Shown piece after piece: positions 8,521 to 62,538 of a DNA stretch of 64,000 nt. This DNA is from Elusimicrobiota bacterium (GTDB lineage: Bacteria; Elusimicrobiota; Elusimicrobia; UBA1565; UBA9628). Below the pieces are notes generated by a model that saw nothing but the letters and a program-made list of their open reading frames with translations, made no database searches and was not told where the DNA came from. The stretch spans positions 1,656-65,655 of the forward strand of contig JANPGH010000001.1 of assembly GCA_031423795.1 (NCBI GenBank), read 5' to 3'. Made by a program: the position numbers and the translations under genes. Numbering within the stretch: the first letter of the stretch is position 1; every line of letters begins with the position of its first letter.

Positions 8521-8523
8521 GGG

Positions 8524-10485
8524 CTATTTTCGCTTCTTTTTGGCTTTCGCCGGCGCTTTCTTTGCAGCCTTGGCTTTCTTCACCGCTTTTGCGGGAGATT
8601 TTGGCGGCATTGCTTTAGCGGCTGGCACCGGAGGAGCGGCTTCGACGGCCGGGGGGGCCTGAAGTGGAAGTACTCCCTCGATGCCCTCGGCGGTCACGAT
8701 AATGGAGTCTGGCAGGCCGTGCGGGCCAGCTTTCTTGTCGAGTAATTCGTCGGTTTTCTGGCCGCCGGTGAGTTTCTTGGCAATCTCGAGAAGCTGGTCG
8801 CGCAGCTTATCCTCGGCGATTTTGCCGCCCTTGAGGCGCTTGCAGGCCCCGACCACTTCCTCAATATAGAGCTCGAAGATGTTCCGGCGCTTGTTCTCGG
8901 ACAGGGCGCGCTCACGGCGCTTGATGAACACGCCCAGACGTCGGCCGGCCTCGCGCAGGCCCAGGGTGATTTCCTTGCGGATCTCGTCGTAATCGGCGAT
9001 GGCTTCCTTGGACTCGCTGGTGAACGGGACCCAGACTGAGGCCATATGGATGAAAATCGCCATCGGGCCATGCGGCGGCGCGCCGCGAGACTGCGTAACG
9101 CCGTAATTTTTCCAGGTTGTTTCGAGAACGGCCTTGAAGGTTGCGCAGGCCGACTGTTGATACAAGAGGGGGACGCGGTTGGCGTAGCGGATTACGCGCG
9201 CCATCTCGTCGTCGCCTTCGTCGTGGCTTTCGCCTTCGGCTAGAGGGGTTTTGGGGGCGGCGGTGGCCGCGGCGGCGAGCGCTTCCGGGCTGCGTCCGTA
9301 AGCCAATCCGACTTCGATCACGAACGGATTGCCGCGGTACACGGCCGGCGGACGGGTGACGGCGGTGTAAAACTCGCCCTTGATCTGCTTGTATAGTCCC
9401 GCCAGTATCGCCTTCTCGCCGATCGGTGATAGGCAATTCGTTGGCGGGGCCATCAGTTTCGTTTCTTGAATGGTTTTGTAGAGGGCTTCGGCCTCGTTGC
9501 CCATCACGTCGCGCGGACGCATGTGGGGTTTAAGTTCCGCGGCCTTGCAAATCTCCTCGGCGGTTTCCGTAGACACGCGCGAGAAGTCGCCGGACAAGAA
9601 GCCGGACAGCCAATGGCTTTTGGTGTCCTGCAGCATTTTGAGAAGCATGCCCAGCTCAATGCCGTAGGGGTGAGGCTTAATCTCTTTCGGCGGTTCGGGC
9701 AGCTCGTGCAGCGCGCGCGCGAATACCTTGACCTCGCCGTCGGGGGCGTGGTAGGTGAATTGCGCGTGCGGATTGGAGATCGAGGTCAGCTCCATGTATT
9801 CGTCGACCGAGGCGCGACCCTTCTGGTATTTACCTTCGAGCTCGATGGTCACCTGGGTGCCGCGATGACGCTCCCACTCGATCTGCTTCTTCTCGAGGAT
9901 GATCGGCTCGTTCTTTTTGGTGTCGATCTGGACTTCGAAATAATGGGCGGGGGACTTCTCGCCGGTGCGCGAGATGATCTTGACCGGCTTGCCGGTAGTC
10001 AGCTGGCCGTACATGCCGGCGGCCGAAATGCCGATGCCCTGCTGTCCGCGGCTCATGCGCAGCCGGTGGAACTTCGAGCCGTACAGGAGTTTGGCGAACA
10101 CGCGCGGGATCTGGTCGCGCACGATACCGGGCCCATGGTCGATCACAGTCACGCGAAAGCGCGTCGCTTGCGAGACGGCCGGGACCGGAGCGTCGCCGAT
10201 GCCGGCGGCCTCGAGCTTGACGACGATATCGGGAAGGTGGCCGGCTTCCTCGGAGGCGTCAAGCGCGTTGTCGACGGCTTCCTTGACGGCGGTGAGTAAC
10301 GCCTTGCGTGGATTGTCAAAACCGAGCAGGTGGCGGTTCTTGGTAAAGAACTCGGAGACGGAGATCTCCCGCTGCTGTTTGCCCATCTCATCTGCGGATT
10401 TCCCCACCGCAGGCGTTTTGGCTTTCGGTTCCTTGTCTTTCATGGCGCGAGGGGCCATCTTAGCAAACGACCGGCGATTTCGCAC
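8524..10485 (-). CDS. top6B: DNA topoisomerase VI subunit B (GHKL ATPase) with a Lys/Ala/Pro-rich basic C-terminal tail
   Basis: GHKL boxes EAVDNALDA, DHGPGI and GQQGIGISAA. The stop lies 3 nt before the top6A start. The start is uncertain (GTG 10485, ATG 10458 or ATG 10443). Confidence 0.9.
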   Translation of the reverse strand: MRNRRSFAKMAPRAMKDKEPKAKTPAVGKSADEMGKQQREISVSEFFTKNRHLLGFDNPRKALLTAVKEAVDNALDASEEAGHLPDIVVKLEAAGIGDAPVPAVSQATRFRVTVIDHGPGIVRDQIPRVFAKLLYGSKFHRLRMSRGQQGIGISAAGMYGQLTTGKPVKIISRTGEKSPAHYFEVQIDTKKNEPIILEKKQIEWERHRGTQVTIELEGKYQKGRASVDEYMELTSISNPHAQFTYHAPDGEVKVFARALHELPEPPKEIKPHPYGIELGMLLKMLQDTKSHWLSGFLSGDFSRVSTETAEEICKAAELKPHMRPRDVMGNEAEALYKTIQETKLMAPPTNCLSPIGEKAILAGLYKQIKGEFYTAVTRPPAVYRGNPFVIEVGLAYGRSPEALAAAATAAPKTPLAEGESHDEGDDEMARVIRYANRVPLLYQQSACATFKAVLETTWKNYGVTQSRGAPPHGPMAIFIHMASVWVPFTSESKEAIADYDEIRKEITLGLREAGRRLGVFIKRRERALSENKRRNIFELYIEEVVGACKRLKGGKIAEDKLRDQLLEIAKKLTGGQKTDELLDKKAGPHGLPDSIIVTAEGIEGVLPLQAPPAVEAAPPVPAAKAMPPKSPAKAVKKAKAAKKAPAKAKKKRK

Positions 10486-26675: not shown

Positions 26676-27785
26676 TCACCCTCGAACCTCCTGACTAAGC
26701 CGTCCGATATGCCACACGAAGCCCGCCAACTCGCGCGCGGCTGCGACCACCGCTTTCTGTCGCGGCTTTCCGCGTCCCGCCATCTTCCGGAATTTCCGAC
26801 ATAACCGCACCTGCGCCCGCTTTCCCGTCGCTACCGCTTCTTGCGATCCACCCTCACGACGCTTGAGCAACGTCGGTCCCGTCTTTTCTGATTGACCGTA
26901 CGCCCACGCCGACTCGACCAACACTCGCCGCAGATGCGCATTGCCAACCTTCGTGATTCGTCCGCGCTGTACGCTTTGGCCCGAACTGTATTCACGGCTG
27001 ACCAGGCCCGTATAGCCCATAAATGCACTCGCCGATTGGAAGCGACGGAAATCTCGAACCTCAACAGCCATAGTCACCGCGTTCAAAGTGTCCACGCCTT
27101 TCAGACATCTCAGATTGGCCACTATTGTCTTCCAAACGTCTTTCCGGGACAATACCAACACTTCTTGATCTAATTCTTCCAGACGCGCCTCGGCTTCCTC
27201 CAACCCTCTTATGTACGACCCGAAGGTTCTCGACTGAGATTCTAAATCGAAACGCAACGCTCGTAGCCATTTCCGGTGCGTCACGCCCCAGGCCTTCGTC
27301 TGACGCCAGCTCAGGCCGTGCCTCAGAAGGAATTTCGACATCCGATGCCGCGCGCGTAGCCGCTCGCCCAGTACGTCCTCGCGCGCCCGCACCAGGTCAC
27401 GATCTGCCTCATCTTCGCGTGTCGGCACGTTTACTGCCGTCAGCTGGCCGGAACGATAGAATTGGGCGAGCTTCTCGGCGTCGCGCCGATCCGTTTTTAC
27501 CTTGTCTCCAGGCCGTCGTGGGATTAAGCCGGGCGCTATTACCGTGCAGTCCTGTCCCTGTGCCGTTAGGTCACGGTGGACTTGATAGCCGCACGGTCCG
27601 GCTTCGTAAACGAACGTCAGCGATCCCCTCGAACTTTGGCGCTCCACGAATTTCTTGAGCGCTGCCGGATTGTTTTCAATTTTTACCACAGTGACTACGT
27701 TATCCGTATCGGGCGGTAGAATTGCCGCGACGATGGAATCCTTGTGGACATCTAGACCTATGACCGTCTTGGTATAATCGAACAT
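26676..27785 (-). CDS. IS110-family transposase/recombinase (DEDD RuvC-like N-domain plus Tnp_20 C-domain)
   Basis: 369 aa from ATG 27785. Motifs VIGLDVHKDS, LKGVDTLNAVTMAVEV and YSSGQSVQRGRITKVGNAHLRRVL. SD GGAGG lies upstream. Confidence 0.9.
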   Translation of the reverse strand: MFDYTKTVIGLDVHKDSIVAAILPPDTDNVVTVVKIENNPAALKKFVERQSSRGSLTFVYEAGPCGYQVHRDLTAQGQDCTVIAPGLIPRRPGDKVKTDRRDAEKLAQFYRSGQLTAVNVPTREDEADRDLVRAREDVLGERLRARHRMSKFLLRHGLSWRQTKAWGVTHRKWLRALRFDLESQSRTFGSYIRGLEEAEARLEELDQEVLVLSRKDVWKTIVANLRCLKGVDTLNAVTMAVEVRDFRRFQSASAFMGYTGLVSREYSSGQSVQRGRITKVGNAHLRRVLVESAWAYGQSEKTGPTLLKRREGGSQEAVATGKRAQVRLCRKFRKMAGRGKPRQKAVVAAARELAGFVWHIGRLSQEVRG

Positions 27786-27923
27786 AGAGTCAGTAGCCTC
27801 CGTTTGTTGGATAGGCTCCCGGGCAACTGGGAGCAACCCACGATATAACGCAGGCTACTGGCTCGTCTATTTAATCTAAAGGCGGAATCACGGATTTGAC
27901 GCCGTCGTCGCTCGAAATCCCTC

Positions 27924-31325: not shown

Positions 31326-32645
31326 CTACGGACTACGGCCGTATCGGTACAGGTTCGCCGCGATCACGACCCAGCCGACCCATATCCCTGTCCCCACGTC
31401 GCCACGGAACATGCTGCGCTTGAGCCCGAACTTGCGGTTGAGAAAGCTGAGCGAGCCTTCGATCCCGGCCCGGAACGCCATGAGAGCCTTGAACCACGCG
31501 CGCCCCTGTTTTGCCCGAATGTCCGGCGGAGCGTTGCCGCGCCAGGCCATCCCAATGCGTCGAACGCCGCCAGCCTTGAGCAGTTTGTGGTTGTCGCTCG
31601 ATGAGAACCCCATGTCCGCGGCAAATACCTTGAGCGCCCTCGGGAACTGGCGCTTATGTTTCTCAACGATGCCCGGGAGAAGCGTCACATCGCCAGGATT
31701 GCCGTTATGAACGCCGTACTGAGTGAAGTAGCCGCTCTCGTCCTGAGTGATCTGCCCGACGCGGCCGAACTCAACGGGATTGGCGAGTTTGCCTTTGACG
31801 ATCGACCGGGCCCCAGGGTCGGCGAGGCTTACGACTTTGTCTGCGGGTTTGCCGCCGGCAAGGCGCTCCTCGGTCTGTCCCGCCACCCTGTCGGTGAGGC
31901 CCAACGTCGTTTCCAAATGGCCGCGCACCTTCGGATCTTTGACCCTTCGCAGGACGCGCTTGACTTTGATGCCCGTCTTGCGCACGATGCGCAGGATCTT
32001 GCGGTTGAGACGCTTGACCCGCTCTCGGGATTTCGCGTCCGGCTTACGCAGCGACTGAGCGATGGAGAAGATCATCTTCTTGGCTTTCGTCATCGTTCGG
32101 CCTAGCCGCAGCCCAATGCCCGGGACTTTGATCAGCTTCTGGCGCAGGCGACGCAGGCCGTCAAACAGCAGGCCAGCGTCGGTCGGATAATGAATGTCCG
32201 AGGCGATCACCGTCGTGTCAGTGCGAATCTTGCGCCCGCGCACCAGCTTGCGCTGGCGAAGGTTGTCGATGACGAGACAATTGACCTCGGCGATGGTTTC
32301 ATCGCCGAATTTGTGGGTGAGCTTGATCAGCGTCGAGGCGTCGGGGACGCGTTGCTGGTAGCCGATGCCGCAGAATCGGCGCCAGGCGATCGAGTCGGAG
32401 ACTTCTTCAACAAGGGTTTCGTAGCCGAGCTTGTAACGAAACTTGAGGTACATCAGTCGCAGGTACGTCGAGATCGGAACGCCGGGGCGGCCTTGCGTCT
32501 GGTTGAATCTCCGCAGGAACGGCTCCATGAGCCGTTCGTCTTGGAGCAGGATGTCCACGCGAGCCAGTTCCTCCGGAAGCTTGCGTAATTCTGCGGGAAG
32601 AATGCTGTCCCAGAGGTCCGGCGTTTCGGGTTTCAGTAGGAGCAT
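31326..32645 (-). CDS. DDE transposase with InsH-type N-terminal domain (IS5/IS1182-like)
   Basis: 439 aa. Motifs TYLRLMYLKFRY, TDTTVIASDIHYPTDAGLL, FAADMGFSS and RAGIEGSLSFLNRKFGLKR. SD GGAG lies upstream. Confidence 0.85.
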   Translation of the reverse strand: MLLLKPETPDLWDSILPAELRKLPEELARVDILLQDERLMEPFLRRFNQTQGRPGVPISTYLRLMYLKFRYKLGYETLVEEVSDSIAWRRFCGIGYQQRVPDASTLIKLTHKFGDETIAEVNCLVIDNLRQRKLVRGRKIRTDTTVIASDIHYPTDAGLLFDGLRRLRQKLIKVPGIGLRLGRTMTKAKKMIFSIAQSLRKPDAKSRERVKRLNRKILRIVRKTGIKVKRVLRRVKDPKVRGHLETTLGLTDRVAGQTEERLAGGKPADKVVSLADPGARSIVKGKLANPVEFGRVGQITQDESGYFTQYGVHNGNPGDVTLLPGIVEKHKRQFPRALKVFAADMGFSSSDNHKLLKAGGVRRIGMAWRGNAPPDIRAKQGRAWFKALMAFRAGIEGSLSFLNRKFGLKRSMFRGDVGTGIWVGWVVIAANLYRYGRSP

Positions 32646-49395: not shown

Positions 49396-49461
49396 CATTC
49401 TCTTAATCCTCCTGAAACGTACGTAGTGTATAATCCGGTTCGCACAAAAAATGACAACAAC

Positions 49462-52400
49462 ATGTTTCGCCACCACCGCAGTCTGAAGTCCGCCTTCGTC
49501 CTCGTCGCTCTCGCGATGATTTCCTCCGTTTTTGCCACCGCAGGATCCGTACAAGTGGCGGTCAATACGGCTTTCATCGTCGATAGCAGCGGACTCGGGG
49601 CGACCTGCGCCGTTACTGCGGGTAGCGGTGGAACGGCCTATTATGATTGCTTGGCTCCCGACGTCGGCGCCAATGTCCCGACGCCGCAAAATCATTTCAT
49701 CGCCAACGATCCAGAAATTCAATTTGCTGATAATGGCCTCAGTCGCTGCAACCTCGCTGGGGCAGCAGCTAATCCAAATATCCCAGGCACAATCGGCCGC
49801 AATGTCTGCAACTCACAGCTTCTTCTCTGCGCGCAGGTCAGCGTCAACCAGGATGCTGCCCCAGCGTCTTTGGCGTTGGATAAAGTCTCTTTTGAAGTTT
49901 TTCGCTACATCGATGGGTCAAATCCCCTGGATCCTGCTTCCACCCCACCCTTGCGCACCATGTTTATCGATTCCGCCGGATCCGTGTCCGGCCCCGGTTT
50001 TCTTCCTTCCTCGGGGCACGCTTATTGCGTGATGTGGGATGGATCCCAGTCAATCCAGGGTTCGTTAGGAAAAATAAATGGTCAGTACGGCTTTCGCGTG
50101 GCGGTGGAAACCAACCAGCAAGGCGCCAGCGGTCAAATCGTCATTACCGCCGTCAGGGCCTATCCTTCCGGTGGCGTGACATACGACGGTTCGGGCGGCC
50201 CGCCCTACACGGCCGTCGCGCCGAAAGCCATTACGGTCAACGTCAACGACGTTCACGTCGTACGGTCGACCCCCACCATCGTCGGCCAGATCACGGGCGT
50301 TGCGGCGGAGCCCTACAACTTTACTTATCGCCTGTCGAAAGGCGCGACCATGTACCTCAATGTCAGCCAGTCGAATCCACCCTATTCATTGATCCGAACC
50401 GTCGTTCCCGCTCTGCAGAGGACCGGCGAGGGCGACCTCGGAACTCAGAACGCGGTTCCTATCGTCAACGGTGATTCCTGGGACGGTCGCGATTCAAACG
50501 GGAATTTCATGCCCGCTGGCAACTATTTGGCGTCATTCCAGTCTAACTCGATGACGCTGTACTCGAATACTCTTGTACAGGGAGACCTGTCGGCGCCGAC
50601 CACGGTTCAAATCGGCCTTGATCCTCTGCAAATCACCGATATACGAGTCCAACCGCTGCTGGGAGGAGCGACGTCGCTCGCCGTGCTCTCCTATATGTTG
50701 ACCGAGCCGGCGACGGTCTATATAGAAGTATATTCGCCGGGAACGCAGTTCTGCAATGACTCGAACAATATAGCGGCTTTAAACGACCTGCCTACCTCCG
50801 CTATTCCGGGAGTCAATTATTTGAGCGCCAGCTCCGGCGGATGTATTCCGGGCGGAGGAGCTGTGGCACCCGTTCAGCCGTTGCGCTCGATTGTCCAGCA
50901 GCAGACATTCCGCACTCCTATCCTTTCCTATTGGGATGGTCGGGATTCCTCCGGTAATTTGGTCGGTGACGGTGATTATGTGTTCGTGATTTACGCGACA
51001 CTCCCTTCACAGCGGGGAGCCATCTTCGACGGTAACGCCGCAGATCGCAGAATTTGGACCACACAAGGAAAAATAGGGTTTATTTCCGTTTTGCGCGGAC
51101 TTGTGGGGCTGACTCAGGTGACGCCCACGACCACGGTCATCGGTTCCAGTCCGGCAATCTCCGGGCTCAATCCCTTCTCGTTCCGCTATCAACTGTCGCG
51201 CGACGCGACCGTCTCCTTGAAGATTTTCGACGCGACCGGAAGCATTCTGATAAAAACGATCGTGGATCGAGAGACACGCCCCGGTTTCTTCAATAACGTC
51301 GAGCCATGGGTTGATGGAACCGGCAATGACGGCCGCGCTCTCTCCTCGGGCACTTATCTCGTTCAGCTGACTGCCTACGACCCGGCCTTCCCTGCGAGAA
51401 TCTCGACGACTACCGCCCTTTTCCCGATCAACATGTACCGCATCACCGACGTATCGATCGTTCCACTGCTCGCGGGCGCATCAGACCAGGTTGTGCTCAG
51501 CTATCAGCTGTCGCAGCCGATGTTCGTTGCCTGGAACGTGTATCCGCCGGGTTCGATCGTGGTCAACAGCACCGGTGCGTGGCCTCCGTGCGTCGGCCAG
51601 TCCCCGCCCAGTGCCTGCACAAGCGCATCCGTCGTCAATCCAAGCGGGATACCCGTCAGTCCCGTGGTCACCTTCCACGGAATGCGCCCCGGCCGCCTGC
51701 GCATCTCCGAATTCTGGGACGGTCGGGATACAAACGGACTGTTCGTCCCAGACGGAAATTACGTTTTCACCTTGGTCGCGCAGACCACGACGACGCCGCA
51801 GTACTACACGTCCGACCATATTTTTGGAACCATCACCGTCGCGCGTGGCTCAATCATCTTCCTGAACTTCAGCGTGACTCCCGACGTTCCCGTCCTTTTC
51901 AACTCGAGCAACACGATCACGCTGCATCCTTACACGATCAGCTACACGCTTTCGCGCCAATCCTCGGTCACCATTCAAATTTTGAACACGACCCTTCCCG
52001 CGGCCGTCGTGCGCACACTGGTATCGGGCTCGGTGCGCGAGGGATCGATCCTGCAAACCGATATTTGGGATGGCCGCGACGATAGGGGTAATTTCTTGCC
52101 CGCAGGCTTCTACCTGGTGCGGGCGGTGGCCTCCGACGTGGCGTCAGCGCTGACTTCAGGGACGACGGCGCAGGCAGCCATCTCCTACGATCCACTGCGC
52201 ATTTACGATCTTGCGGTGACGCCGATCACCTTTGGAGGTGGTGGCGCGATAATCGCGTATCAAGTCTCCGAGTCGATGAAGGTATCGATCAAAATCTACA
52301 AACCAGGGACCACCTTCGACTCGGCGGGAACGCCATCTCAACCCGACTCCGTATCCTTGGTTCGCCGCATCGTCGGAATTCGGCCGGGCCGCACGCTGAT

Positions 52401-52920
52401 CCAGGACGTATGGGACGGCCGCGACTTCCGAATGGCCCTGGTTCCGGACGGCGTTTATCGCTTCAAGATCGTCGGCTCGACCGATCCGACCGCCATCGAC
52501 AGCATTACCGGCAATATTTTAAATCCGGCGGTGTTGGCCACAGACCGCCCCATCGACGATATCCCCGTCGCAACCGACGGTGCGGCTGGGGATGCCGGCA
52601 CAAATTTTGATCACGATACTTTCGTCTATCCCAATCCAGTCACCGGGAATTCGGCGGTCGTCAAGATTTTCATGCCGTATACCGGCCGAGCGATTTTCAA
52701 TCTTTACACCATCGCCGGACAATTGGTTTACAGCCGAACTATGGAGGGCATGTCCGCCAATCACCTCTGTTCAGGAGACTGCAATTCGTTCACCTGGAAC
52801 AAGGTCAACGCCAGCGGACGCACCCTTGCTCGTGGTTTGTATTACGCCGTCATCCGTGTCGAGGAAACTCAAGGCAGCGGGACCGTTTATCAAACGGTTA
52901 AGAAGGTGTTGATCCCGTGA
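49462..52920 (+). CDS. Large surface protein: about 7 FlgD-Ig-like repeats plus a T9SS type A C-terminal sorting domain
   Basis: About 1152 aa from ATG 49462, with a signal peptide. The recurrent motif is WDGRD..G..(V/M)P.G.Y. The C-terminal VYPNPVTGNSAVVKI...LYTIAGQLV...GLYYAVIRV...KKVLIP fits the Por_Secre_tail pattern. Confidence 0.8.
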   Translation: MFRHHRSLKSAFVLVALAMISSVFATAGSVQVAVNTAFIVDSSGLGATCAVTAGSGGTAYYDCLAPDVGANVPTPQNHFIANDPEIQFADNGLSRCNLAGAAANPNIPGTIGRNVCNSQLLLCAQVSVNQDAAPASLALDKVSFEVFRYIDGSNPLDPASTPPLRTMFIDSAGSVSGPGFLPSSGHAYCVMWDGSQSIQGSLGKINGQYGFRVAVETNQQGASGQIVITAVRAYPSGGVTYDGSGGPPYTAVAPKAITVNVNDVHVVRSTPTIVGQITGVAAEPYNFTYRLSKGATMYLNVSQSNPPYSLIRTVVPALQRTGEGDLGTQNAVPIVNGDSWDGRDSNGNFMPAGNYLASFQSNSMTLYSNTLVQGDLSAPTTVQIGLDPLQITDIRVQPLLGGATSLAVLSYMLTEPATVYIEVYSPGTQFCNDSNNIAALNDLPTSAIPGVNYLSASSGGCIPGGGAVAPVQPLRSIVQQQTFRTPILSYWDGRDSSGNLVGDGDYVFVIYATLPSQRGAIFDGNAADRRIWTTQGKIGFISVLRGLVGLTQVTPTTTVIGSSPAISGLNPFSFRYQLSRDATVSLKIFDATGSILIKTIVDRETRPGFFNNVEPWVDGTGNDGRALSSGTYLVQLTAYDPAFPARISTTTALFPINMYRITDVSIVPLLAGASDQVVLSYQLSQPMFVAWNVYPPGSIVVNSTGAWPPCVGQSPPSACTSASVVNPSGIPVSPVVTFHGMRPGRLRISEFWDGRDTNGLFVPDGNYVFTLVAQTTTTPQYYTSDHIFGTITVARGSIIFLNFSVTPDVPVLFNSSNTITLHPYTISYTLSRQSSVTIQILNTTLPAAVVRTLVSGSVREGSILQTDIWDGRDDRGNFLPAGFYLVRAVASDVASALTSGTTAQAAISYDPLRIYDLAVTPITFGGGGAIIAYQVSESMKVSIKIYKPGTTFDSAGTPSQPDSVSLVRRIVGIRPGRTLIQDVWDGRDFRMALVPDGVYRFKIVGSTDPTAIDSITGNILNPAVLATDRPIDDIPVATDGAAGDAGTNFDHDTFVYPNPVTGNSAVVKIFMPYTGRAIFNLYTIAGQLVYSRTMEGMSANHLCSGDCNSFTWNKVNASGRTLARGLYYAVIRVEETQGSGTVYQTVKKVLIP

Positions 52921-53900
52921 GTAAATTGATCAGATTTTTCTTGGCGATCAACGTCCTCCTAGCGACCACTTCGTCCGCGGCCTGGGCGATTGATTCCGCA
53001 GCGGGCACCAGTGCTGCCCAATTTATGAAGATCGGCCAAGGATCTGCTCGCGCGATGGCTCTGGGAGGAGCTTACGTCGCATTGGCCGAAGGCTCGGACG
53101 CGATGTCCTGGAATCCGGCCGGTCTGGCCGCGACCCAGCAGCGGGAATTCGCCTTCTCATATCTGCGCCATCTTCAAACCCTCGATTCGCCATTATATCT
53201 GGGATACGCGCATCCGATGGGTCGCACGACCTGGGGCGGGAATTTCGGTTACATGTCCGACAGCTTGACGGGCACCGACGTCCGTGACACTTCTGGCTAT
53301 ATCCAGCAGGGTACGAACGTTACTGTTCGTGATTTTTACGGAGCGATCGGCTTGGCGAGGTCGTTCATGTATGAAAAACTCTTTTTGGGCGCGGCGATCC
53401 GGGAAGTTCATGAAGAGATCGCGGGCTCCAAACATGACACGTTTGCGGGGGACTTCGGCGTCATTTTCAAACCGACGAACATACTATCCCTGGGTTTCGC
53501 CCTCCAGAATTTCGGCGCCAGCGATGCCAATATCGCGCGAGTCCTGCGCGGCGGGGCGGCGCTGCGGCTCAACGATTTCGTGACATTCTCCGGTGAATTG
53601 AATAAAGCGACCGATGACGGCACGCACATCGCGCTCGGCGGCGAATTCCAGTTGCCGGAAGAATATCTAGACGTGGGACAAATCACCATGCGCATCGGAT
53701 ATAAGAGCGGCCAAGGCTACGGCCAGAGCTTTTCTGGCGTGCTTAAATCTCTGAAGTTGGACCAGAGCAGCGGATTGTCTTTTGGACTAGGCGTGTACAC
53801 GTCGCAGGCGTTCGGTTACGGAGTCGCGATCGATTACGCGTTCGTGCCATACGGGGCGCTGGGGACGGTCGACCAGATTTCATTCAAGTTGAAATTTTAA
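52917..53900 (+). CDS. PorV/PorQ-family outer-membrane beta-barrel
   Basis: 327 aa with a signal peptide. Motif GSARAMALGGAYVALAEGSDAMSWNPAGLA. GTGA overlap with the upstream cargo gene. Confidence 0.7.
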   Translation: MSKLIRFFLAINVLLATTSSAAWAIDSAAGTSAAQFMKIGQGSARAMALGGAYVALAEGSDAMSWNPAGLAATQQREFAFSYLRHLQTLDSPLYLGYAHPMGRTTWGGNFGYMSDSLTGTDVRDTSGYIQQGTNVTVRDFYGAIGLARSFMYEKLFLGAAIREVHEEIAGSKHDTFAGDFGVIFKPTNILSLGFALQNFGASDANIARVLRGGAALRLNDFVTFSGELNKATDDGTHIALGGEFQLPEEYLDVGQITMRIGYKSGQGYGQSFSGVLKSLKLDQSSGLSFGLGVYTSQAFGYGVAIDYAFVPYGALGTVDQISFKLKF

Positions 53901-53921: not shown

Positions 53922-53950
53922 TTGACACTGATATGGACGGCTGTTAAACT
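53922..53950 (+). promoter_or_regulatory. Promoter TTGACA-N17-TAAACT, 7 nt before the first pilin ATG (leaderless)
   Basis: TTGACA at 53922-53927, TAAACT at 53945-53950 and ATG at 53958. Confidence 0.6.
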
Positions 53951-53957
53951 GACGGCG

Positions 53958-54137
53958 ATGCGAAAGCGGTTTATACCTCGGACATTATTAGGGAAGAAGG
54001 GCCAGACGGTCGTGGAGTACCTTTTGACGACGCTGACGCTCGTGACATTGTTCGCGGGGATGTACGGATTCTTGCAGGGGCAGCTTAAGACCTTGTTTCG
54101 CATCGCCGGGATTAAAATTTTGACGCCGTATTACTAA
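53958..54137 (+). CDS. flp: Flp-type pilin 1
   Basis: 59 aa. The class III signal is KKG/QTVVEYLL, matching G/xxxxEY, and a hydrophobic helix follows. Confidence 0.7.
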   Translation: MRKRFIPRTLLGKKGQTVVEYLLTTLTLVTLFAGMYGFLQGQLKTLFRIAGIKILTPYY

Positions 54138-54168
54138 CGTGAAATCGCAAGAAGGAGAGAGCGCGACC

Positions 54169-54381
54169 ATGAAATTGACTGAGTTCGGAGCGGTAATTCG
54201 ACGCCGGCTTACCAGCCGGCGTGGGCAGAACACCGTCGAATACTTGCTGATGTTGACTGTCGTCGTCGGTGTCGTTCTGGTGGCAGGAGTGGCGTTGAAG
54301 AAATTCATGCCGACTCTGTTTAACCAGATCCAGCAAATGATCTCGGGAGCCGCTGGACAGATGGGCTCGGGCGGCGGCTGA
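54169..54381 (+). CDS. flp: Flp-type pilin 2 (Gly-rich C-terminus)
   Basis: 70 aa. SD AAGGAGAG lies about 9 nt upstream. The signal is RRG/QNTVEYLLML. Confidence 0.75.
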   Translation: MKLTEFGAVIRRRLTSRRGQNTVEYLLMLTVVVGVVLVAGVALKKFMPTLFNQIQQMISGAAGQMGSGGG

Positions 54382-54444: not shown

Positions 54445-54882
54445 GTGAGGAGTCGAATAAAATGTCGGTCTGGTCAAGTGGTCGTCGAAATGTTGCTGAT
54501 CCTTCCCGTATTCCTGGGAATGATCTTCATGATCATGGAAATCGGCTACGTGTCGTTTCGTTTGATCGTTCTCAACCATGCGACGTACGAAGTGGCGCGC
54601 GTTGGCGGGATGACGTGGTTTTCGCCAGTCGGAGGGCCGAGCAAGGTCGCAGGCGTAATGCAGAGGATTCTGCCCGAGGCAGTAGTGCAATGCCTTCCGG
54701 ACAAGACCATGCGCGATCCGCAGGCGGACCAGGACAATTTCGATTTGGTGTGTACGGGAACGGAAGACGTGGCGTTGATTTTTCCCATCAGCAGCGTCGT
54801 CCTCGCCAAACCGGCGCGCAGCGGCAAGCGCCGGCTGGTGGCGGTCGTAAGAATGCCGATTGAGCAGCCATTGAGGAAGTAA
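54445..54882 (+). CDS. TadE-like pseudopilin
   Basis: 145 aa with a GTG start. The signal is RSG/QVVVEMLLILPVFL, and HATYEVARVG is present. Confidence 0.65.
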   Translation: MRSRIKCRSGQVVVEMLLILPVFLGMIFMIMEIGYVSFRLIVLNHATYEVARVGGMTWFSPVGGPSKVAGVMQRILPEAVVQCLPDKTMRDPQADQDNFDLVCTGTEDVALIFPISSVVLAKPARSGKRRLVAVVRMPIEQPLRK

Positions 54883-54904: not shown

Positions 54905-55660
54905 ATGGAAAAGAAAGGCGTGCTGATTCCGACGGTGTTGGCGATAGTTGCGGCGGTGTTCTACATGATCGTGCTGATGAGCAAGGAGAAATCCCTCACC
55001 GCCGACTATGAGAAGACGACCGTGCTTATCGCCCGCGCCGATATCCCGGAGCGCACCGTGCTGCGCGAAGACATGGTCGACAAGCTGGAAATCCCGCGCA
55101 AGTTCATGCAACAGGACGATTTCGAGGTTAAGACCCAGTCCGACATGAAGCTGATCGTTAATTTGGTGACGCGCACCCGCATCCCTAAGGGCAATCAGGT
55201 CACGATGTCGTCCTTGGTGTCGATGTCGCCGGAGTCCGGCCTCAGCGTGAAGATCCCTCCCGGATACCGCGGCGCGATGCTACCAATCGAGCCAGAAATG
55301 AAAATCCTGGTTAAGCCGGGCGATCGCGTCGACGTGCTGGTGACTTTCGAGGCGATGATGAACGACGGCCGCAAGGAAAAAGTCACCGCGACGATCCTGC
55401 AGAACGTGCTGGTGATCGCGGTGGGCACCAATCTCGGCCAGGGCATGAACGCCAAGCAGTTTAAGAACGCCCAAGCCACCGAGGAGAAAACGGCGGCCTT
55501 CGCGGAGAAGGCGACCGTCAGCCTGGCCTTAAATCCGACCGAGGCGCAGTATCTGGCGCTCGCTCTCAAGCAGGGCGATCCGACCGTGATCATGCGCGGC
55601 CTCGGCGACATCGAGATGCATCCGCTCGAGATGGCCAGCTTCCGCAAGCTTTTCCGATGA
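54905..55660 (+). CDS. cpaB: Flp pilus assembly protein CpaB/RcpC (SAF domain)
   Basis: 251 aa. An N-terminal TM is followed by VLIARADIPERTVLREDMV. Confidence 0.8.
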   Translation: MEKKGVLIPTVLAIVAAVFYMIVLMSKEKSLTADYEKTTVLIARADIPERTVLREDMVDKLEIPRKFMQQDDFEVKTQSDMKLIVNLVTRTRIPKGNQVTMSSLVSMSPESGLSVKIPPGYRGAMLPIEPEMKILVKPGDRVDVLVTFEAMMNDGRKEKVTATILQNVLVIAVGTNLGQGMNAKQFKNAQATEEKTAAFAEKATVSLALNPTEAQYLALALKQGDPTVIMRGLGDIEMHPLEMASFRKLFR

Positions 55661-56406
55661 AGAAGACTTTTTGGACGGCGATGGCTCTTCTCGCGCTGAC
55701 CGCGCCACGGGCCTCCGCGCAGCCGGAGGACTCTTTAATCGCGATCTCAGCCGACATCGTCGAGATCTCGGGATCTTACGAGAGGGACCTCGGATTTGCG
55801 TGGACTCCGTTTCAAGCGGGGGTCAATTTCGCCGAAAAGGCCATCCCCGTGGGGAGCATCATCAGGATCGGGGACTTCGCCCGACAAACCCAACTGCAAA
55901 GCTCGCTGAAGTTGCTGGAGACGGAGGGCAAAGCGCAGTTGCTGTCCAATCCGAAGGTCATTGTGCAGGCGCAGTCTCAGGCTAACTTTGTGGTCGGAGG
56001 CGAACAGCCTTATCCGACCGCTAACGGCAACGGAACCGTGACGACCGATTTCAAGAAGTTCGGCGTGATCATGAATATCGTGCCGGTGATCAACCCCAAT
56101 AAGAAGGACACGATTCGCGCGGAATTACAGCTCGAGGTTTCCAACGTTGATTTTTCCAAGACGGTCCAAGTCGGCAACACGGCGGTGCCCTCAATCGTTA
56201 CGCGCCAGCTGCAGACCGCCGTGGAAGTCAAAAGCGGCGAGACGCTGGTGATCGGGGGACTTAAGTCCAGCACCAAGAACTCGTCGAAGACGAAAGTTCC
56301 CTTTATCGGCAGCATCCCGATCATTGGCCTGCTGTTTACCCAGACGCAGGTCACCGAAACCCAGGTCTCTTTGTTTCTGTTCATCACGATGGAAATCGTG
56401 AAGTAA
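55657..56406 (+). CDS. Minimal secretin (secretin core only, 249 aa)
   Basis: It has a signal peptide. Motifs are LLSNPKVIVQAQSQANFVVGGE, FGVIMNIVP and VPFIGSIPIIGLLF. ATGA overlap with cpaB. Confidence 0.8.
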   Translation: MKKTFWTAMALLALTAPRASAQPEDSLIAISADIVEISGSYERDLGFAWTPFQAGVNFAEKAIPVGSIIRIGDFARQTQLQSSLKLLETEGKAQLLSNPKVIVQAQSQANFVVGGEQPYPTANGNGTVTTDFKKFGVIMNIVPVINPNKKDTIRAELQLEVSNVDFSKTVQVGNTAVPSIVTRQLQTAVEVKSGETLVIGGLKSSTKNSSKTKVPFIGSIPIIGLLFTQTQVTETQVSLFLFITMEIVK

Positions 56407-56419
56407 GAGTCACCCAACC

Positions 56420-58747
56420 ATGGCCGATACGCAGGCGAGCTCCGAGGCGTTCGTCCAGACCTCCGTCAAGGAGCCTGGGCGAGTCGTCGTATTTACCGGC
56501 CCGAAAGAAGGCGTCGGTAAAAGCACGACATGCCTGAATCTTGCGCTCGCGTGGGCCGGCAGCCAAAACCGCAAAGTCGTGATCGTGCACATGGACCCAC
56601 TGTGCCGCAACGACATTAGTTTCGTGCTCGGGGGGAGCTCTCCGTCGCTAGCGAGCATGGCCAATTTGGTGGGGGAAAGCCCAACTGGAGGACTCGGCCG
56701 CTTGCTGAAAGGGCGCATTCCGATCTCGCAGTGGGGAGTGGGACTTCTGCCGCTGGCGGCGTCGCGCGCGGAATTTTCAAAACTCACGCCGAATTTGGTC
56801 GCGAAGATCCTGGGGTCCTTGGCCGAGAGTTACGACCTCTTCATCGACGTGGATCCCTATTTCCCGCTGCAGATTTTCTCGTTCGATCTGGCTGATCTCA
56901 TTTTTTGGGTGTGTCTGCCCCAGCGGGCCCATTTTGAGGCCACGTACTCTCTGTTTAACGATATCAAAGCCCTCCATTTCCCGCTCGAAAAATTTGAGAT
57001 CGTCATCAACCAGGCGAACCTCCCGGGCGCGTTGGCCCCGAAAGAGGTCGGTCGATTTTTCCACGCGATGCAGAAAACCGTGCTGGCCTACATGCCCTGG
57101 GACGACTACATTCCGGAGTATTGGAACACCCAGCGCATTCTCGTCGTCGAGCAGCTCCAAAGCGAGTGGGTGAAATCCCTGCGCACCTTGCTCGGCCGGG
57201 TCATGGAGATGAAACCTTCGGTCAAGCAGTGGGAAAGCAGCATGGGCGCCGACGAGTTCGTTTCCTCATCGGAGCTATTATGGAGGCCCACCGCGGCGGT
57301 GGCGGCCGCCAATGCAGCAGAGGCAACTAAGGCAATCAAGCCGACCGCAGTCGGGCCGGTACCCGATTTCTGGGATGAGTTGAAGGGCAAAATGCACAAA
57401 TTCGTCGTCTCGGCGATGGAGACCGAGCGCATCCGAATTTCTGAGGACCCGAAGCAAAACGAAGACAATCGGTCGAAGGTCAGCCAGATCATCGATAATC
57501 TCCTGCAGCGAGAGGAAAATCTGGCGCTTTCTCGTGCGCAACGCCAGCAGTTCGTCGTTGAATTGGTTGACGAGATTCTGGGTTTCGGGCCGCTTCAACA
57601 GTTGCTGCGCGACCCCACGATCAACGAAATCATGGTCAACGGCTACGATCGAATTTACATCGAGCAGAAAGGCCAACTGATTCTTCTTCCGACCCGCTTT
57701 CGCAACGATGAGCAAGTCGTGCAGGTCATCAAGCGCATCGTCGCCCCGGTGGGACGGCGCATCGACGAGTCGGTGCCGCTGGTCGACGCGCGGCTCAAAG
57801 ACGGGTCGCGCGTGAACGCGATCATTGCACCCCTAGCGATTTCGGGGCCCACGCTGACGATTCGTCGTTTCTCAGCCAAGCCGTTCACACACAAGCAGCT
57901 GGTTGCCTTCGGCTCCTGCACGCAAGGATTCATCGACTTCCTTAGCGCGACGGTGATCATCAAGAAGAATATTTTGATCTCCGGCGGCACTGGCACTGGT
58001 AAGACGACATTTTTAAATATGCTTTCGAATTTCATTCCCGAGGGCGAGCGCATCGTAACCGTGGAAGATACGGCCGAATTGCGGCTGCTCGCCGATCATT
58101 GGATTCGCCTGGAATCTCGCCCTCCGAATATCGAGGGCAAGGGGGAGATCACGATTCGCGACCTGATCAAGAACTGCTTGCGCATGCGCCCGGACCGGAT
58201 CATCGTCGGCGAGTGTCGCGGCGGCGAGGCGTTGGACATGCTTCAGGCGATGAACACGGGGCACGAAGGCTCGCTGGCGACCCTGCACGCAAATACTCCG
58301 TCGGACGCCATTTCTCGCTTGTCGGCGATGTGTTTGATGGGCGGTACCGATCTTCCGATGAGCGTTCTAGTCGACATGATCTCGAGCGCGGTCAACGTGT
58401 TCATCCAAATAACCCGCTTCCCGGACGGCAAGCGCCGCGTGACTTACATCACTGAGTGCGTGGGACGCGACGGCGCGAAAATCCTGACCCGCGATATTTT
58501 TCGCTTCATTCAGACGTGGATGGACGAAAAGGGAACGACTTACGGTTATTTCACCGCGTGCGACTATATCCCCAAGTTCATGGAGGAGATAAAGCTCAAG
58601 GGCATCACCATCCCAAAAGAGGCCTTCATCAGCGAGCGCACCAAGAAAAAGAATGGGCTTGCGAATGCGATCGACGACATGTTGAGGGCTGGTCTGCCGG
58701 TTCCCGACGACGCCGAGGCAGTTGCGTCGTCGAAAGGAGTGTTCTGA
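56420..58747 (+). CDS. Fusion of a TadZ/CpaE-like ParA/MinD ATPase and a TadA/CpaF secretion ATPase
   Basis: 775 aa. The N-terminal part has [16 protein letters not shown]. An Ala-rich linker follows. The C-terminal part has [24 protein letters not shown] and [13 protein letters not shown]. Confidence 0.85.
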
Positions 58748-60267
58748 TGCGCGCTCTGGCGCTTCTTGCCGTCTTGACTCTCGCCGCCGGGGCTCCCGTT
58801 TGCGCGCAGCAAGTCTTCACACGCGAACAAGGCCAGGCCCTATTCGACAAGAAGGACGGCGCTGAATTCAAGGTCCAGGTTTTCTACCACTACTTTAAGC
58901 GCGACCGCGATCCCAGCGTGCCAGCGCCGAAATGGGTCGCAGCGACGCTTGACGCGATGCTCAAGCGCGCCGTCTGGCAGGACCCCGATGAGGGTGTGCT
59001 CAACGAGGCCCAACTATGGCAGGCGCCGGTGTCCGTCCTATACGAGTTCTTCGAATTGGTACGCAAAAGCCTGCCGCCCGATCCATACGGGGGGCAACTA
59101 ATACCGCCGGGCAACCTCGTACGCGATTACGAGGACAACCGCGTACGTTTCCAGATGTCGCTCGATCGACTCGTCCGGTCGCGGTTGGGAAGTTCTCTTG
59201 GCGGACGCGGGCGCGCGGTGATTGCGCACTTCGACTTGATCAACAAGCAGCTCGACTCCGTAATGGACGGCCTAATCAACGGGGATACGCAGCGCTACAA
59301 GGACGGGGTCATCGCCATCGGAGCGTTGAGCAATGGGGCGTTCGACGTCCTGCAGGCAGCGCCCCGCGGCTACAATGACCCGTCGATAACAACCGACAAG
59401 AGCGCCAAGGACATAGCACTCTTCTTCCTTTGCTTTGGCATCATCGCGATGGCCATCGCGGGCTTTATGCTGGGGACGTTGAATGAGGAAAAAATCAGCA
59501 TTGGCATTGCCCGCTACCGCACGAAGGCCACGGAATGGGCGCACGAATATGAGCGCCAATTCATTGCGATCAAAATCCATTATTTGGTCGGCGTGCCAAT
59601 CGTCCTGGGAGCCTTGGCGGGCCTGCTGTCCTTTGACATTTTCGGCTTCCTGATTTTCACCGGTTTCGGTGTGTATGCGGGGCTGACTATTCCGGGCTGG
59701 CTTTTGCGCAACATCCGTTTCCGTCGCGGGCAGAAAGTCGAGGCCCAGCTCATGGACGCGATGATCTTGATGTCAAACGGGCTCAAATCGGGCATCGACT
59801 TGATTGGTTGCATTGAGATGGTGACCAAGGACTGCGCGCCGCCGATTTCAGAAGAGTTCGGTTTGTGCCTCAAGAATTACCATTTGGGCACGCCGCTTGA
59901 GCGCGCGCTTGAGGGCGTTGAGGAGCGTGTGCAGAGCCGGCTCTTGTCGTACATGATCAAGGCCGTCAATATCCAGCGCTCGGTCGGCGGCAACCTAACC
60001 AAGATCTTTGACCGCATCGTCGAAAACATCCGCGAGGAATCGAAGCTGACGGAGAAAACGGCGGCGATGACCGCCCAGCAGCGCATCCAGGCCATCGTCG
60101 TCGGAGTGATGCCGTGGATCATGCTGATCATCATGTTCGTCTTTCAACCGCAAACGATGCGCGATTTCTATTTCTCGCCCATCGGTTTTTTCACGCTCCT
60201 GTTCTGCACCGTTTGGATCTCAATTGGCATGAAAATCGTCAATAAGCTCGGGGATATTAGCGTCTGA
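58747..60267 (+). CDS. tadB: TadB-like platform protein with an N-terminal ~200-aa secreted domain
   Basis: 506 aa from ATG 58747 (TGATG overlap). The order is a signal peptide, a soluble domain, TMs, and then a GspF/T2SSF-like region (LMSNGLKSGIDL...LERALEG). Confidence 0.7.
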   Translation: MRALALLAVLTLAAGAPVCAQQVFTREQGQALFDKKDGAEFKVQVFYHYFKRDRDPSVPAPKWVAATLDAMLKRAVWQDPDEGVLNEAQLWQAPVSVLYEFFELVRKSLPPDPYGGQLIPPGNLVRDYEDNRVRFQMSLDRLVRSRLGSSLGGRGRAVIAHFDLINKQLDSVMDGLINGDTQRYKDGVIAIGALSNGAFDVLQAAPRGYNDPSITTDKSAKDIALFFLCFGIIAMAIAGFMLGTLNEEKISIGIARYRTKATEWAHEYERQFIAIKIHYLVGVPIVLGALAGLLSFDIFGFLIFTGFGVYAGLTIPGWLLRNIRFRRGQKVEAQLMDAMILMSNGLKSGIDLIGCIEMVTKDCAPPISEEFGLCLKNYHLGTPLERALEGVEERVQSRLLSYMIKAVNIQRSVGGNLTKIFDRIVENIREESKLTEKTAAMTAQQRIQAIVVGVMPWIMLIIMFVFQPQTMRDFYFSPIGFFTLLFCTVWISIGMKIVNKLGDISV

Positions 60268-60268
60268 T

Positions 60269-61177
60269 ATGGCACCTATCGAACCTGCCCTGCATTGGAT
60301 GTTGTTCGTCATCGGCTTCTTGGGGTCGGCGGCGGCGTATACCGCGGTCAGCCGCTTGGCTGCGCCGACCGACGAGGGTGACGCCACCGACCTGTCAAAG
60401 CTCGCGAAGAGCCAAGTGGGAATGTCGTCTGCATTCTCCAGCCTCAACCCCAACGGCGGGTTCCTCGACCGGGTGGACCTGTTCTTGCTTCGCACCCTCT
60501 CCCTTGACGTAAAACTCGAGGAAATGAACATGATGATGGGTCGGCCGACGAAGCCGACGCCTATCGAGATGCTGCACATGAAGGAGTTCTTCGCTGGTTT
60601 TTTCGCCCTCGTACCGTTTTTCGTCACCGGCGAGTGGATATTCCTTATTTTCGGCGTGCTCGGCTTCCTGCTCCCCGATGTGTTTTTCAACAGTCGCATC
60701 CGCCAGCGCCAGCAGGACATCATGCGCAACTTTCCGACGACGGTCGATTTGATGGCACTTACCATCGAGGCGGGACTCGATTACATGGCGGCGATCGAGC
60801 GCATCCTCAAAAACGTCCGCGCGGAGCAGCGCACCGAGCTCGAAAAGGAGCTCGAAAAGATGCTCAACGAGGTCCGTCTCGGCTACACGAGGCGAGACGC
60901 GCTGAAAAGGCTGGCGATGCGCACGGGGATCCCTGCGGTCCGCTCGTTTGTCGGCCTGATCATCCAATCCGATGAGCTGGGAACCAGCCTCGTCGAACTC
61001 CTGCGCAACTACGCCGCTGACATGCGCTTCCGGCGCTTGAATAAGGCCGAGAAGCTCGCTGCGCAGGCGTCGACCAAAATGCTGATCCCGCTGTTCTTGT
61101 TCATTTTCCCGACTGTGTTCATCATGATGCTGGCGCCGATGATGAAGAGCCTCATCCAAGGAGGCCTCGGATTCTGA
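60269..61177 (+). CDS. tadC: TadC-like platform protein
   Basis: 302 aa. T2SSF-like region: FPTTVDLMALTIEAGLDYMAAIERI...GTSLVELLRNYA. Confidence 0.75.
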   Translation: MAPIEPALHWMLFVIGFLGSAAAYTAVSRLAAPTDEGDATDLSKLAKSQVGMSSAFSSLNPNGGFLDRVDLFLLRTLSLDVKLEEMNMMMGRPTKPTPIEMLHMKEFFAGFFALVPFFVTGEWIFLIFGVLGFLLPDVFFNSRIRQRQQDIMRNFPTTVDLMALTIEAGLDYMAAIERILKNVRAEQRTELEKELEKMLNEVRLGYTRRDALKRLAMRTGIPAVRSFVGLIIQSDELGTSLVELLRNYAADMRFRRLNKAEKLAAQASTKMLIPLFLFIFPTVFIMMLAPMMKSLIQGGLGF

Positions 61178-62538
61178 TGATGTCCTCGCTTTTCGCCGTT
61201 ATGCTGGTGTCCGCAGCCTTGACTCCGGCCTCCGCCCAAAGCCAAGAGGCAGCCACCGCGAAGATCAAGGAGACCGAAGGGTTATTCCTGGACATGTCCA
61301 AGCTTAAGCTTGGCACCGTCACAACCGAGGACGACAAGAAAAAATACGTCTACACGATCCAGCTCGAGAAGGCGCGCCTGACGCGCAAGACGCTGAAAAT
61401 CGTCTACGAAAATGCGTACGAACTTTACCGTGCGGGGCAGTACGAGGAAGCCAACGAGCTCACGCGCCGCATTCTGTCGATCGATCCCGGCTATGAGGAC
61501 GCGTCGATTCTTAACCGTGCGACGTTAGATCTGAAGGGGTCCGCTGCGCCGCGAATGTCGGAACGCCGTTTGTTGGACGATCGGTTCGAAGAAGGCCTGG
61601 CCCTGTATCGTCAGGGGCGCCTCCCTGAGGCCGCCGAAAAGTGGGACGAAGTCGTCAAGTTGTCGCCGGGCAATTTAAAGGCGCGTTATTGGCTGAGGAA
61701 GGCGCGCGGAGAGATGGCCGAAGAGCACTTTCGCCGTGGACAAAAGGCGTATCGCCAGCATCGGCTGCGGGAAACCCTGGATCAATGGTATGCGGCCCTG
61801 GTCTTGAATCCTCGTTATCCAAAATTGACTCAGGCGATCGCCAAAGTCGAGGCCGAGGAGCGTGAGCAGGAAGCCAATGAGAAGTTGCAGTCGGCGCTCA
61901 ATCTTTACAGCCAGGGGTTGGTCCTTGAGTCGCTCAAAATGCTCGACCAGGTGCTTGAGGCTGGCCCCGGCAACGTGAAGGCTCAGAAACTTCAAGCCGA
62001 GATTCGCGCCGAAGTCGCCAACCAGCACGTGGCCGAAGGGCGAAGGTTGTATGAGTCTCGCCAATACGAAAAAGCGATTTCCGAATGGAAAGTTGCAGTC
62101 GATTACGGCTACGATCCGAAGGCGTCTTCCCAACTCGTCGCGCGGGCCAAGGAGCAGATGCGTCGCGAGGAAGCGGCGCGCAAACGCGCCTCCGAAATTG
62201 CCAAGGAGAAGGAAGAGGACGCCAAGAAGAGGCAAGAGGAAGAGGCTAAGCAGGCGGCTGTCGACGCCAAGAAGGCCGAGGAGGATAAAGCCAAGGCCGA
62301 GGCTGACGCGAAGGCCGCGGCGGCTTCGGGCCAAGCCCCGGCCAACCCTGGTGCCACGTCGGACACCGCCAAGCAACAGTCCAACCAGGCGTATGGCGAC
62401 GGCATGATATTCTTCCAGCAAGGTAACTACGATAAAGCCCGCGAGAAATTCCTCCAGGCCAAGCAGCTGGATCCCGGCAACGCCGACGCGGCCAGCGGTC
62501 TGGAACGCATCGAAAAACTTTACGGAGCTGGGCAGTGA
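61177..62538 (+). CDS. Secreted TPR-repeat protein with a Lys/Glu/Ala-rich insert (TadD-like role possible)
   Basis: 453 aa with a signal peptide and several TPR units. The charged insert is KEKEEDAKKRQEEEAKQAAVDAKKAEEDKAKAEADAKAAA. Confidence 0.7.
   Translation: MMSSLFAVMLVSAALTPASAQSQEAATAKIKETEGLFLDMSKLKLGTVTTEDDKKKYVYTIQLEKARLTRKTLKIVYENAYELYRAGQYEEANELTRRILSIDPGYEDASILNRATLDLKGSAAPRMSERRLLDDRFEEGLALYRQGRLPEAAEKWDEVVKLSPGNLKARYWLRKARGEMAEEHFRRGQKAYRQHRLRETLDQWYAALVLNPRYPKLTQAIAKVEAEEREQEANEKLQSALNLYSQGLVLESLKMLDQVLEAGPGNVKAQKLQAEIRAEVANQHVAEGRRLYESRQYEKAISEWKVAVDYGYDPKASSQLVARAKEQMRREEAARKRASEIAKEKEEDAKKRQEEEAKQAAVDAKKAEEDKAKAEADAKAAAASGQAPANPGATSDTAKQQSNQAYGDGMIFFQQGNYDKAREKFLQAKQLDPGNADAASGLERIEKLYGAGQ

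Follow-up and report, generated by a model that had tools for sequence, protein, structure and literature searches.

The CpaF hexamer drives extension and retraction of the Flp pilus in Caulobacter. In the integrative model obtained with Caulobacter cryo-electron tomography (cryo-ET), six CpaE dimers (12 copies) surround one CpaF hexamer and REC domains bridge neighbouring dimers; the amphipathic helix of CpaE binds the inner membrane, and CpaE contacts the CpaF base in the piliated state. In Bdellovibrio bacteriovorus HD100, an 'atypical TadZA fusion ATPase' with the order TadZ-linker-TadA, lacking the receiver-like domain of TadZ (ARD), was described and tested (Tesseur, Denise, Santin, Laloux; bioRxiv 10.64898/2026.07.08.737194, July 2026). 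The Bdellovibrio gene is located directly upstream of tadB in a tad locus without a prepilin peptidase, the TadZ part together with the linker binds the polarity hub RomR, the fusion localises dynamically, and a previous prediction of a TadZA fusion is referenced by the authors (bioRxiv 10.64898/2026.07.08.737194). We analyzed a 64,000-nucleotide stretch of an Elusimicrobiota genome (assembly GCA_031423795.1, contig JANPGH010000001.1, positions 1,656 to 65,655), hereafter the window, in which one gene, tadZA, encodes a protein that joins a TadZ/CpaE-type ATPase to a full TadA/CpaF motor. A preliminary description of this DNA had proposed such a fusion, and the proposal is upheld by the uninterrupted open reading frame (ORF), the Pfam assignments, the matches to CpaF structures and the tad operon around the gene. 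Judged from its sequence, the protein is most probably the Elusimicrobiota TadZA-class motor subunit of a Tad (Flp, type IVc) pilus machine. Compared by published description, it resembles Bdellovibrio TadZA in carrying an ARD-less TadZ, a flexible linker and TadA in one chain, and the two loci are alike in that the fusion gene lies directly upstream of tadB with no prepilin peptidase (TadV) found nearby. They differ in that the window comes from Elusimicrobiota and not from Bdellovibrionota, in that tadC adjoins the window operon but is located elsewhere in Bdellovibrio, and in that neither a RomR-like gene nor another polarity partner was identified in the 64-kb window.

The tadZA gene is a single ATG-started reading frame of 775 codons with zero internal stops (Table 1). 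Every sequence motif quoted in the preliminary description was present in the translation, including KEGVGKST at residues 29-36, GGTGTGKTT at residues 522-530, an Asp/Walker B box at residues 590-604, a His box at residues 613-625 and an Ala-rich linker stretch at residues ~290-315. We mapped the domain architecture of the 775-aa protein with Pfam, which placed CbiA at residues 23-171 (1.9e-8, exceeding the gathering score) and T2SSE at residues 388-666 (1.2e-62), and with NCBIfam, whose top model was the TadA family TIGR03819 (7.5e-94). The C-terminal half matched the Caulobacter CpaF structures 8RJF, 8RKD and 9E24 end to end over residues ~355-728 at E ~1e-113 (1.5e-113 for 8RJF and 9E24), and was much closer to CpaF than to the FlaI/GspE-like (1e-42) or VirB11 (1e-32) proteins in the PDB. 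Walker A, the Asp/Walker B box and the His box all lie in the C-terminal domain (CTD) of the motor and are invariant in the family, in agreement with the assignment of a full CpaF domain. In Caulobacter CpaF (501 aa, 9E24) the aligned part begins at residue 115; in the window protein the TadZ domain and the linker precede the aligned part.

Searching 5.8 billion protein clusters recovered more than 100 clusters with the same CbiA+T2SSE layout, 740-880 aa in length and 62-85% identical to the window protein with full-length coverage. These clusters stem from independent NCBI, JGI, ENA and Logan assemblies, and their labels are mostly Elusimicrobia or Elusimicrobiota. Across an alignment of 27 members, the window protein shared on average 71% identity in the ParA-like domain, 27% in the linker, 71% in the helical N-region of CpaF, 82% in its N-terminal domain (NTD) and 78% in the CTD; given the high identity in the domains and the low identity in the linker, purifying selection acts on both halves, and the tether between them evolves freely. 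With distant fusions as queries, a profile search added 120 ParA+T2SSE proteins, each 700-760 aa long and with a score of 959 bits or more. Their named members are from Candidatus Omnitrophota (many), Elusimicrobiota including Endomicrobiia, one 'Deltaproteobacteria' metagenome-assembled genome (MAG) and one Acidobacteriota MAG, and annotation pipelines label such fusions 'TadA', 'CpaF' or 'MinD'. The distant fusions share the domain order and a similar size with the window protein, and their N-domains are the nearest to that of the window protein outside its own family; however, N-domain identity is only 23-30%, and most have KGGVGK[TS] or KGGVGQT rather than KEG in the P-loop. Monophyly of the fusions received 13% support in a tree of 64 domains built by neighbour-joining, a distance method. 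The preliminary description had implied that the architecture was undescribed, and this implication did not hold: Bdellovibrio TadZA has the same layout and has been studied experimentally, the fusion is widespread in Omnitrophota, Elusimicrobiota and other phyla, and the architecture, already described and frequent in sequence databases, is not new. Our literature search found no publication that treats the fusion in Elusimicrobiota. Some T2SSE proteins that scored high against the fusion queries had no detected ParA domain (P0092, P0093 and P0095, ~1150 aa; P0399-P0402, 815 aa), and their CpaF architecture may be tandem or extended in some other way.

The N-terminal domain of the fusion is ParA/MinD-like, as had been proposed. 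AlphaFold2 modelled residues 14-290 with a predicted local distance difference test (pLDDT) value of 86.7 and a predicted template modelling score (pTM) of 0.88. Foldseek comparison of this model with the PDB gave the Chlorobium ParA-family ATPase 3EA0 as the top match (TM 0.84-0.85), with FleN, FlhG, MinD and Soj among the further matches and TM values of 0.7-0.85 across ParA, FleN, FlhG and MinD. The P-loop of the domain reads G27-P-K-E-G-V-G-K34-S, with D59 in Switch I and D143/D145 in Walker B. It had been called intact, and this is true of its two lysines, the signature lysine of the deviant Walker A (xKEGVGKS) and K34, but not of the glycine after the signature lysine, which is replaced by an invariant glutamate. 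The window motif K-E-G-V-G-K-S thus departs from the consensus quoted for TadZ, K/RGGXGXS/T. All 113 of the 113 P-loop motifs collected from the close family read [KR]-E-G-x-G, followed mostly by K-[ST], whereas the other fusions mostly have KGGVGK[TS] or KGGVGQT and canonical CpaE has KGGxG.

The invariant glutamate occupies the G12 position of MinD and Soj. Gly12 of these proteins touches the gamma-phosphate across the dimer interface, and the G12V variant is an ATP-bound monomer that is unable to dimerise (PMC13537761). We consider that nucleotide binding is probably retained in the N-domain because the signature lysine K29, the P-loop lysine K34, D59 and R63 of Switch I, and D143/D145 of Walker B are invariant or nearly so in the family; the canonical sandwich dimer of the TadZ domain is in doubt because glutamate occupies the G12-equivalent position. 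The same substitution raises the possibility that the domain is a degenerate pseudo-ATPase, serving as a structural spacer or scaffold without nucleotide-dependent switching. The replacement of the first Switch I aspartate by histidine, the block on dimerisation by G12V in Soj and MinD, and the long branch of the family in the neighbour-joining tree are in line with such a degenerate domain; against it stand the conserved lysines (K29 nearly invariant, K34 invariant) and the other nucleotide-site residues, an N-domain conservation nearly as high as that of the motor, and paralogues with tandem domains, which suggest that pairing is still used. On this evidence we regard a degenerate domain as unlikely. 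The paralogues in question, P0121 (822 aa) and P0123 (1014 aa), carry two tandem glutamate-bearing TadZ-like domains per chain, of which the second copy is without the P-loop lysine. In P0121 the domains are joined to N-terminal TPRs and in P0123 to a C-terminal Ser/Thr protein kinase, and neither protein has a CpaF motor.

We assigned the N-domain to the TadZ/CpaE type on the basis of its phmmer neighbourhood, a hidden Markov model (HMM) test, the tree and the gene context, which together support this identity. An exhaustive phmmer search over 1.84 billion representatives returned, after the close family, CbiA+T2SSE fusions of ~700-745 aa and then many proteins of 380-430 aa. The latter match at residues ~130-350 and have the canonical CpaE/TadZ layout of Response_reg/ARD followed by ParA, and some of them are named 'pilus assembly protein CpaE'. 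An HMM built from CpaE-type ATPase domains gave the N-domain of the window protein 68.4 bits, compared with 38.7 bits from a MinD/FlhG-type HMM, and the CpaE HMM was preferred by 24-57 bits in 16 of 16 family members. In the neighbour-joining tree, the fusions and canonical CpaE split from MinD/FlhG with 100% bootstrap. When a profile of N-domains from distant fusions served as the query, CpaE ranked above MinD and MinD above FlhG, in a word-indexed search that recovered no fusions, not even the query members. The domain also takes the tadZ slot directly upstream of the tadA part, in a tad operon without another ParA-like gene, and no other ParA-like ORF besides tadZA was found in the 64-kb window.

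Several results weigh against the TadZ name and would fit a generic module of the MinD/FlhG/ParA kind whose recruitment was independent of TadZ. The family profile matched FleN (1.4e-14) and MinD (5.7e-13) in the PDB ahead of the only TadZ with a solved structure, that of E. rectale (3FKQ, 8e-4), a single-sequence search of the PDB with the N-domain did not single out TadZ either, and the top sequence and fold matches are FleN, FlhG, MinD and the Chlorobium ParA-family protein rather than the solved TadZ. The N-terminal NCBIfam matches are to MinD/ParA models with weak scores, and the CpaE and MinD reference sets used in the HMM test and the tree were chosen from matches to related fusions and are thus not unbiased. 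The PDB matches alone do not establish the TadZ identity of the domain. Nevertheless, the 30-bit preference for the CpaE-type HMM, the clade formed with CpaE, the ARD+ATPase layout of the closest non-fused relatives and the position of the domain in an operon otherwise without tadZ make independent recruitment of a generic module quite improbable. The absence of the receiver-like domain, which had been stated in the preliminary description, was evident from the 17 poorly conserved residues that precede strand beta1 and from the lack of a Response_reg match in Pfam. An ARD is typical of TadZ but is not universal, as the ARD-less TadZA of B. bacteriovorus also illustrates.

We examined the integrity of the fused frame in related genomes by scanning one genome per GTDB species with the N-domain alignment, which confirmed 238 loci; the locus counts given here use the best 80 of these, every one of them from an Elusimicrobiota MAG. 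A P-loop regular expression matched 74 of the 80 loci, and the fusion counts rest on those 74, with the other 6 outside the counts. The fusion was kept in 72/74 loci. The N-domain and the CpaF motifs fell within one complete ORF in 58 of them, 3 others were complete variants of 760-765 aa with the Walker A motif GGTGTGKTV (L051, L054 and L055), and 11 reached the contig end with the frame still open. The two interrupted loci have technical breaks: L010 has a 1-nt frameshift within its G-rich linker, with a CpaF part that lacks a start codon of its own, and in L037 the frame is interrupted by an ambiguous base (N).

Apparent split versions of the gene were rejected as well. P0122 (284 aa), seemingly a stand-alone TadZ, derives from the same gene, in which an in-frame change of TGG to TAG occurs at a conserved tryptophan on a 2-kb contig (L001); the gene caller reported this false stand-alone TadZ because TAG replaces the tryptophan codon in L001. 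The TAG at positions 1455-1457 of L001 matches the W288 codon of the window (57281-57283), a nearly invariant tryptophan of the LLW[KR] motif ahead of the linker. The product of P0124 was shortened by an IS110 insertion (locus L002). We saw no genuine separate tadZ and tadA pair of the Elusimicrobiota fusion family among the candidates P0122, P0124, L010 and L037. The idea that an error in the linker (a frameshift, a mis-join or an overlooked stop) made one frame out of adjacent tadZ and tadA genes finds its support in the low-complexity, GC-rich and indel-prone nature of the linker, the linker frameshift in the related complete genome L010 and the TAG in L001, but it has next to no probability given that the junction frame is open in more than 100 independent clusters and in nearly all of the counted loci, that linker length varies by threes with the frame intact, that the CpaF parts of L010 and L001 have no start codon of their own and continue the upstream frame, and that a separate tadZ was not found in the window. 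Conservation of the fused frame effectively excludes an assembly artefact.

The linker between the two halves is variable and of low complexity. Residues 270-318 of the window protein correspond to 44-58 residues across the family, rich in Ala, Gly, Ser and Pro, and the length changes in the 27-member alignment are in multiples of three with the frame kept. Disorder was predicted for residues 283-312. A short conserved helix ending in LLW[KR] precedes the tether, and this helix appears to align with the C-terminal amphipathic membrane-targeting helix of CpaE, MinD and FlhG, a weakly conserved region.

From the gene structure, the TadZ:TadA ratio would be 1:1, in line with the stoichiometry suggested earlier, as opposed to 12 CpaE to 6 CpaF in the Caulobacter model. 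Compared to canonical TadZ/CpaE (A. actinomycetemcomitans TadZ, C. crescentus CpaE and E. rectale 3FKQ), the window protein is ARD-less, covalently 1:1 and carries glutamate at the G12 position. From what is known of the family, the CpaF half would hexamerise beneath the TadB/TadC platform and power polymerisation and depolymerisation of Flp pilins. With one TadZ domain per protomer, six TadZ domains rather than twelve would ring the motor, with no REC domains, and each would hang on a ~40-residue tether for which disorder is predicted. TadZ could then act in cis on its own machine, by inner-membrane or landmark contact, motor recruitment or regulation, where free CpaE acts in trans. The LLW[KR] helix may mediate the membrane or landmark contact, and recognition of the pole or of a partner may be handed to another protein, as to RomR in Bdellovibrio. 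More speculatively, the TadZ domain would probably be a nucleotide-binding monomer, or have an altered dimer interface, instead of forming the canonical ring of six dimers; we propose this because of the invariant glutamate at the G12 position and because the ARD, the proposed bridge between CpaE dimers in Caulobacter, is missing. The tandem copies in P0121 and P0123 suggest that a glutamate-bearing domain can still pair, which speaks against a monomer, and the full-length AlphaFold2 monomer was of low confidence (pTM 0.42), showed no confident inter-domain packing and is uninformative on the hexamer. That the 'KEG' TadZA is mechanistically distinct, with the G12-position glutamate, the loss of the ARD and the 1:1 tether together turning TadZ from a free, dimeric localisation factor (12 copies per machine in Caulobacter) into a nucleotide switch or a membrane clutch that works in cis on each protomer of the CpaF hexamer, is a possibility that we consider rather doubtful.

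Table 1. Features of tadZA and the surrounding tad operon, in window positions.
Feature	Position	Strand	Description	Basis
flp1	53922..54137	+	Flp-type prepilin, G/QTVVEY motif	motif; conserved in related loci
flp2	54139..54381	+	Flp-type prepilin, G/QNTVEY motif	motif; conserved in related loci
tadE-like	54445..54882	+	TadE-like pseudopilin, G/QVVVEM motif	motif; conserved in related loci
rcpC/cpaB	54905..55660	+	SAF + RcpC domains	domain search
secretin	55657..56406	+	short secretin, 249 aa, Secretin domain only	domain search
tadZA	56420..58747	+	775-aa fused TadZ/CpaE-type + TadA/CpaF-type ATPase; stop included	Pfam, NCBIfam, PDB matches
TadZ/CpaE-type domain	56471..57244	+	ParA/MinD-fold ATPase domain, residues ~18-275	Pfam, phmmer, AlphaFold2, Foldseek, HMM test, tree
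Linker	57245..57361	+	variable low-complexity Ala/Gly/Ser/Pro linker, residues ~276-314	alignment, full-length model
LLW[KR] helix	57248..57283	+	short conserved helix ending LLW[KR], residues ~277-288	alignment, models
CpaF/TadA motor	57362..58744	+	helical N-region residues 315-385, NTD 386-500, CTD 501-700, variable C-tail	
tadB-like	58747..60267	+	platform protein, 506 aa, T2SSF	domain search
tadC-like	60269..61177	+	platform protein, T2SSF	domain search
TPR gene	61177..62538	+	TPR protein, TadD-like position	domain search; related loci

The tad genes form a compact operon on one strand in the order flp1-flp2-tadE-rcpC-secretin-tadZA-tadB-tadC-TPR, and a gene for a HAMP-like protein stands after the TPR gene in the same-strand operon. 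The ATG of tadB overlaps the stop of tadZA (TGATG), with the Shine-Dalgarno sequence AAAGGAG ahead. The secretin is without the usual N-domains and is conserved in 78 of the best 80 related loci. The TadB-like protein is unusually long, with a signal-peptide-like N-terminus and a conserved, apparently periplasmic region of ~250 aa followed by T2SSF. Directly upstream of the pilin genes (49426-53900, +) are genes for a 1164-aa protein, which carries FlgD-Ig repeats and has a C-terminus of the CHU_C/Por_Secre_tail-like type, and for a 327-aa protein resembling an outer-membrane protein; in 42/42 related loci whose flanks are complete, this pair is colinear with the tad operon, and it may serve this Tad system as a conserved surface or adhesin module. 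The whole 12-gene block was colinear in 32 of these 42 loci, and each of the remaining 10 had no detectable match for just one flanking gene. A prepilin peptidase (Peptidase_A24) was found neither near the tad operon nor among the larger ORFs of the 64-kb window.

The remainder of the window consists of ordinary chromosomal housekeeping genes. It also contains adjoining genes for topoisomerase VI subunits A and B (7426-10485, -; Spo11/Toprim and GHKL transducer domains), a type IIB enzyme known mainly from archaea, as well as an IS110-family transposase (26676-27836, -) and a DDE transposase (DUF772/DDE_Tnp_1; 31326-32645, -).

The natural fusion is 'Rosetta-stone' evidence for direct physical contact of TadZ/CpaE and TadA/CpaF, a contact that has so far only been modelled, from Caulobacter cryo-ET density and AlphaFold3. 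The result carries a known theme into another phylum without introducing a new one, and the family-specific P-loop substitution may merit biochemical attention. The fused proteins would be handy single-chain targets when the interface of TadZ and TadA is studied structurally and, if the 'KEG' fusions are indeed a mechanistically distinct variant, would be ready-made single-chain constructs for solving this interface. The recurrence of the fusion in Elusimicrobiota, Omnitrophota, Bdellovibrio and other lineages suggests that neither the ARD nor a 2:1 ratio of CpaE to CpaF is essential to every Tad machine.

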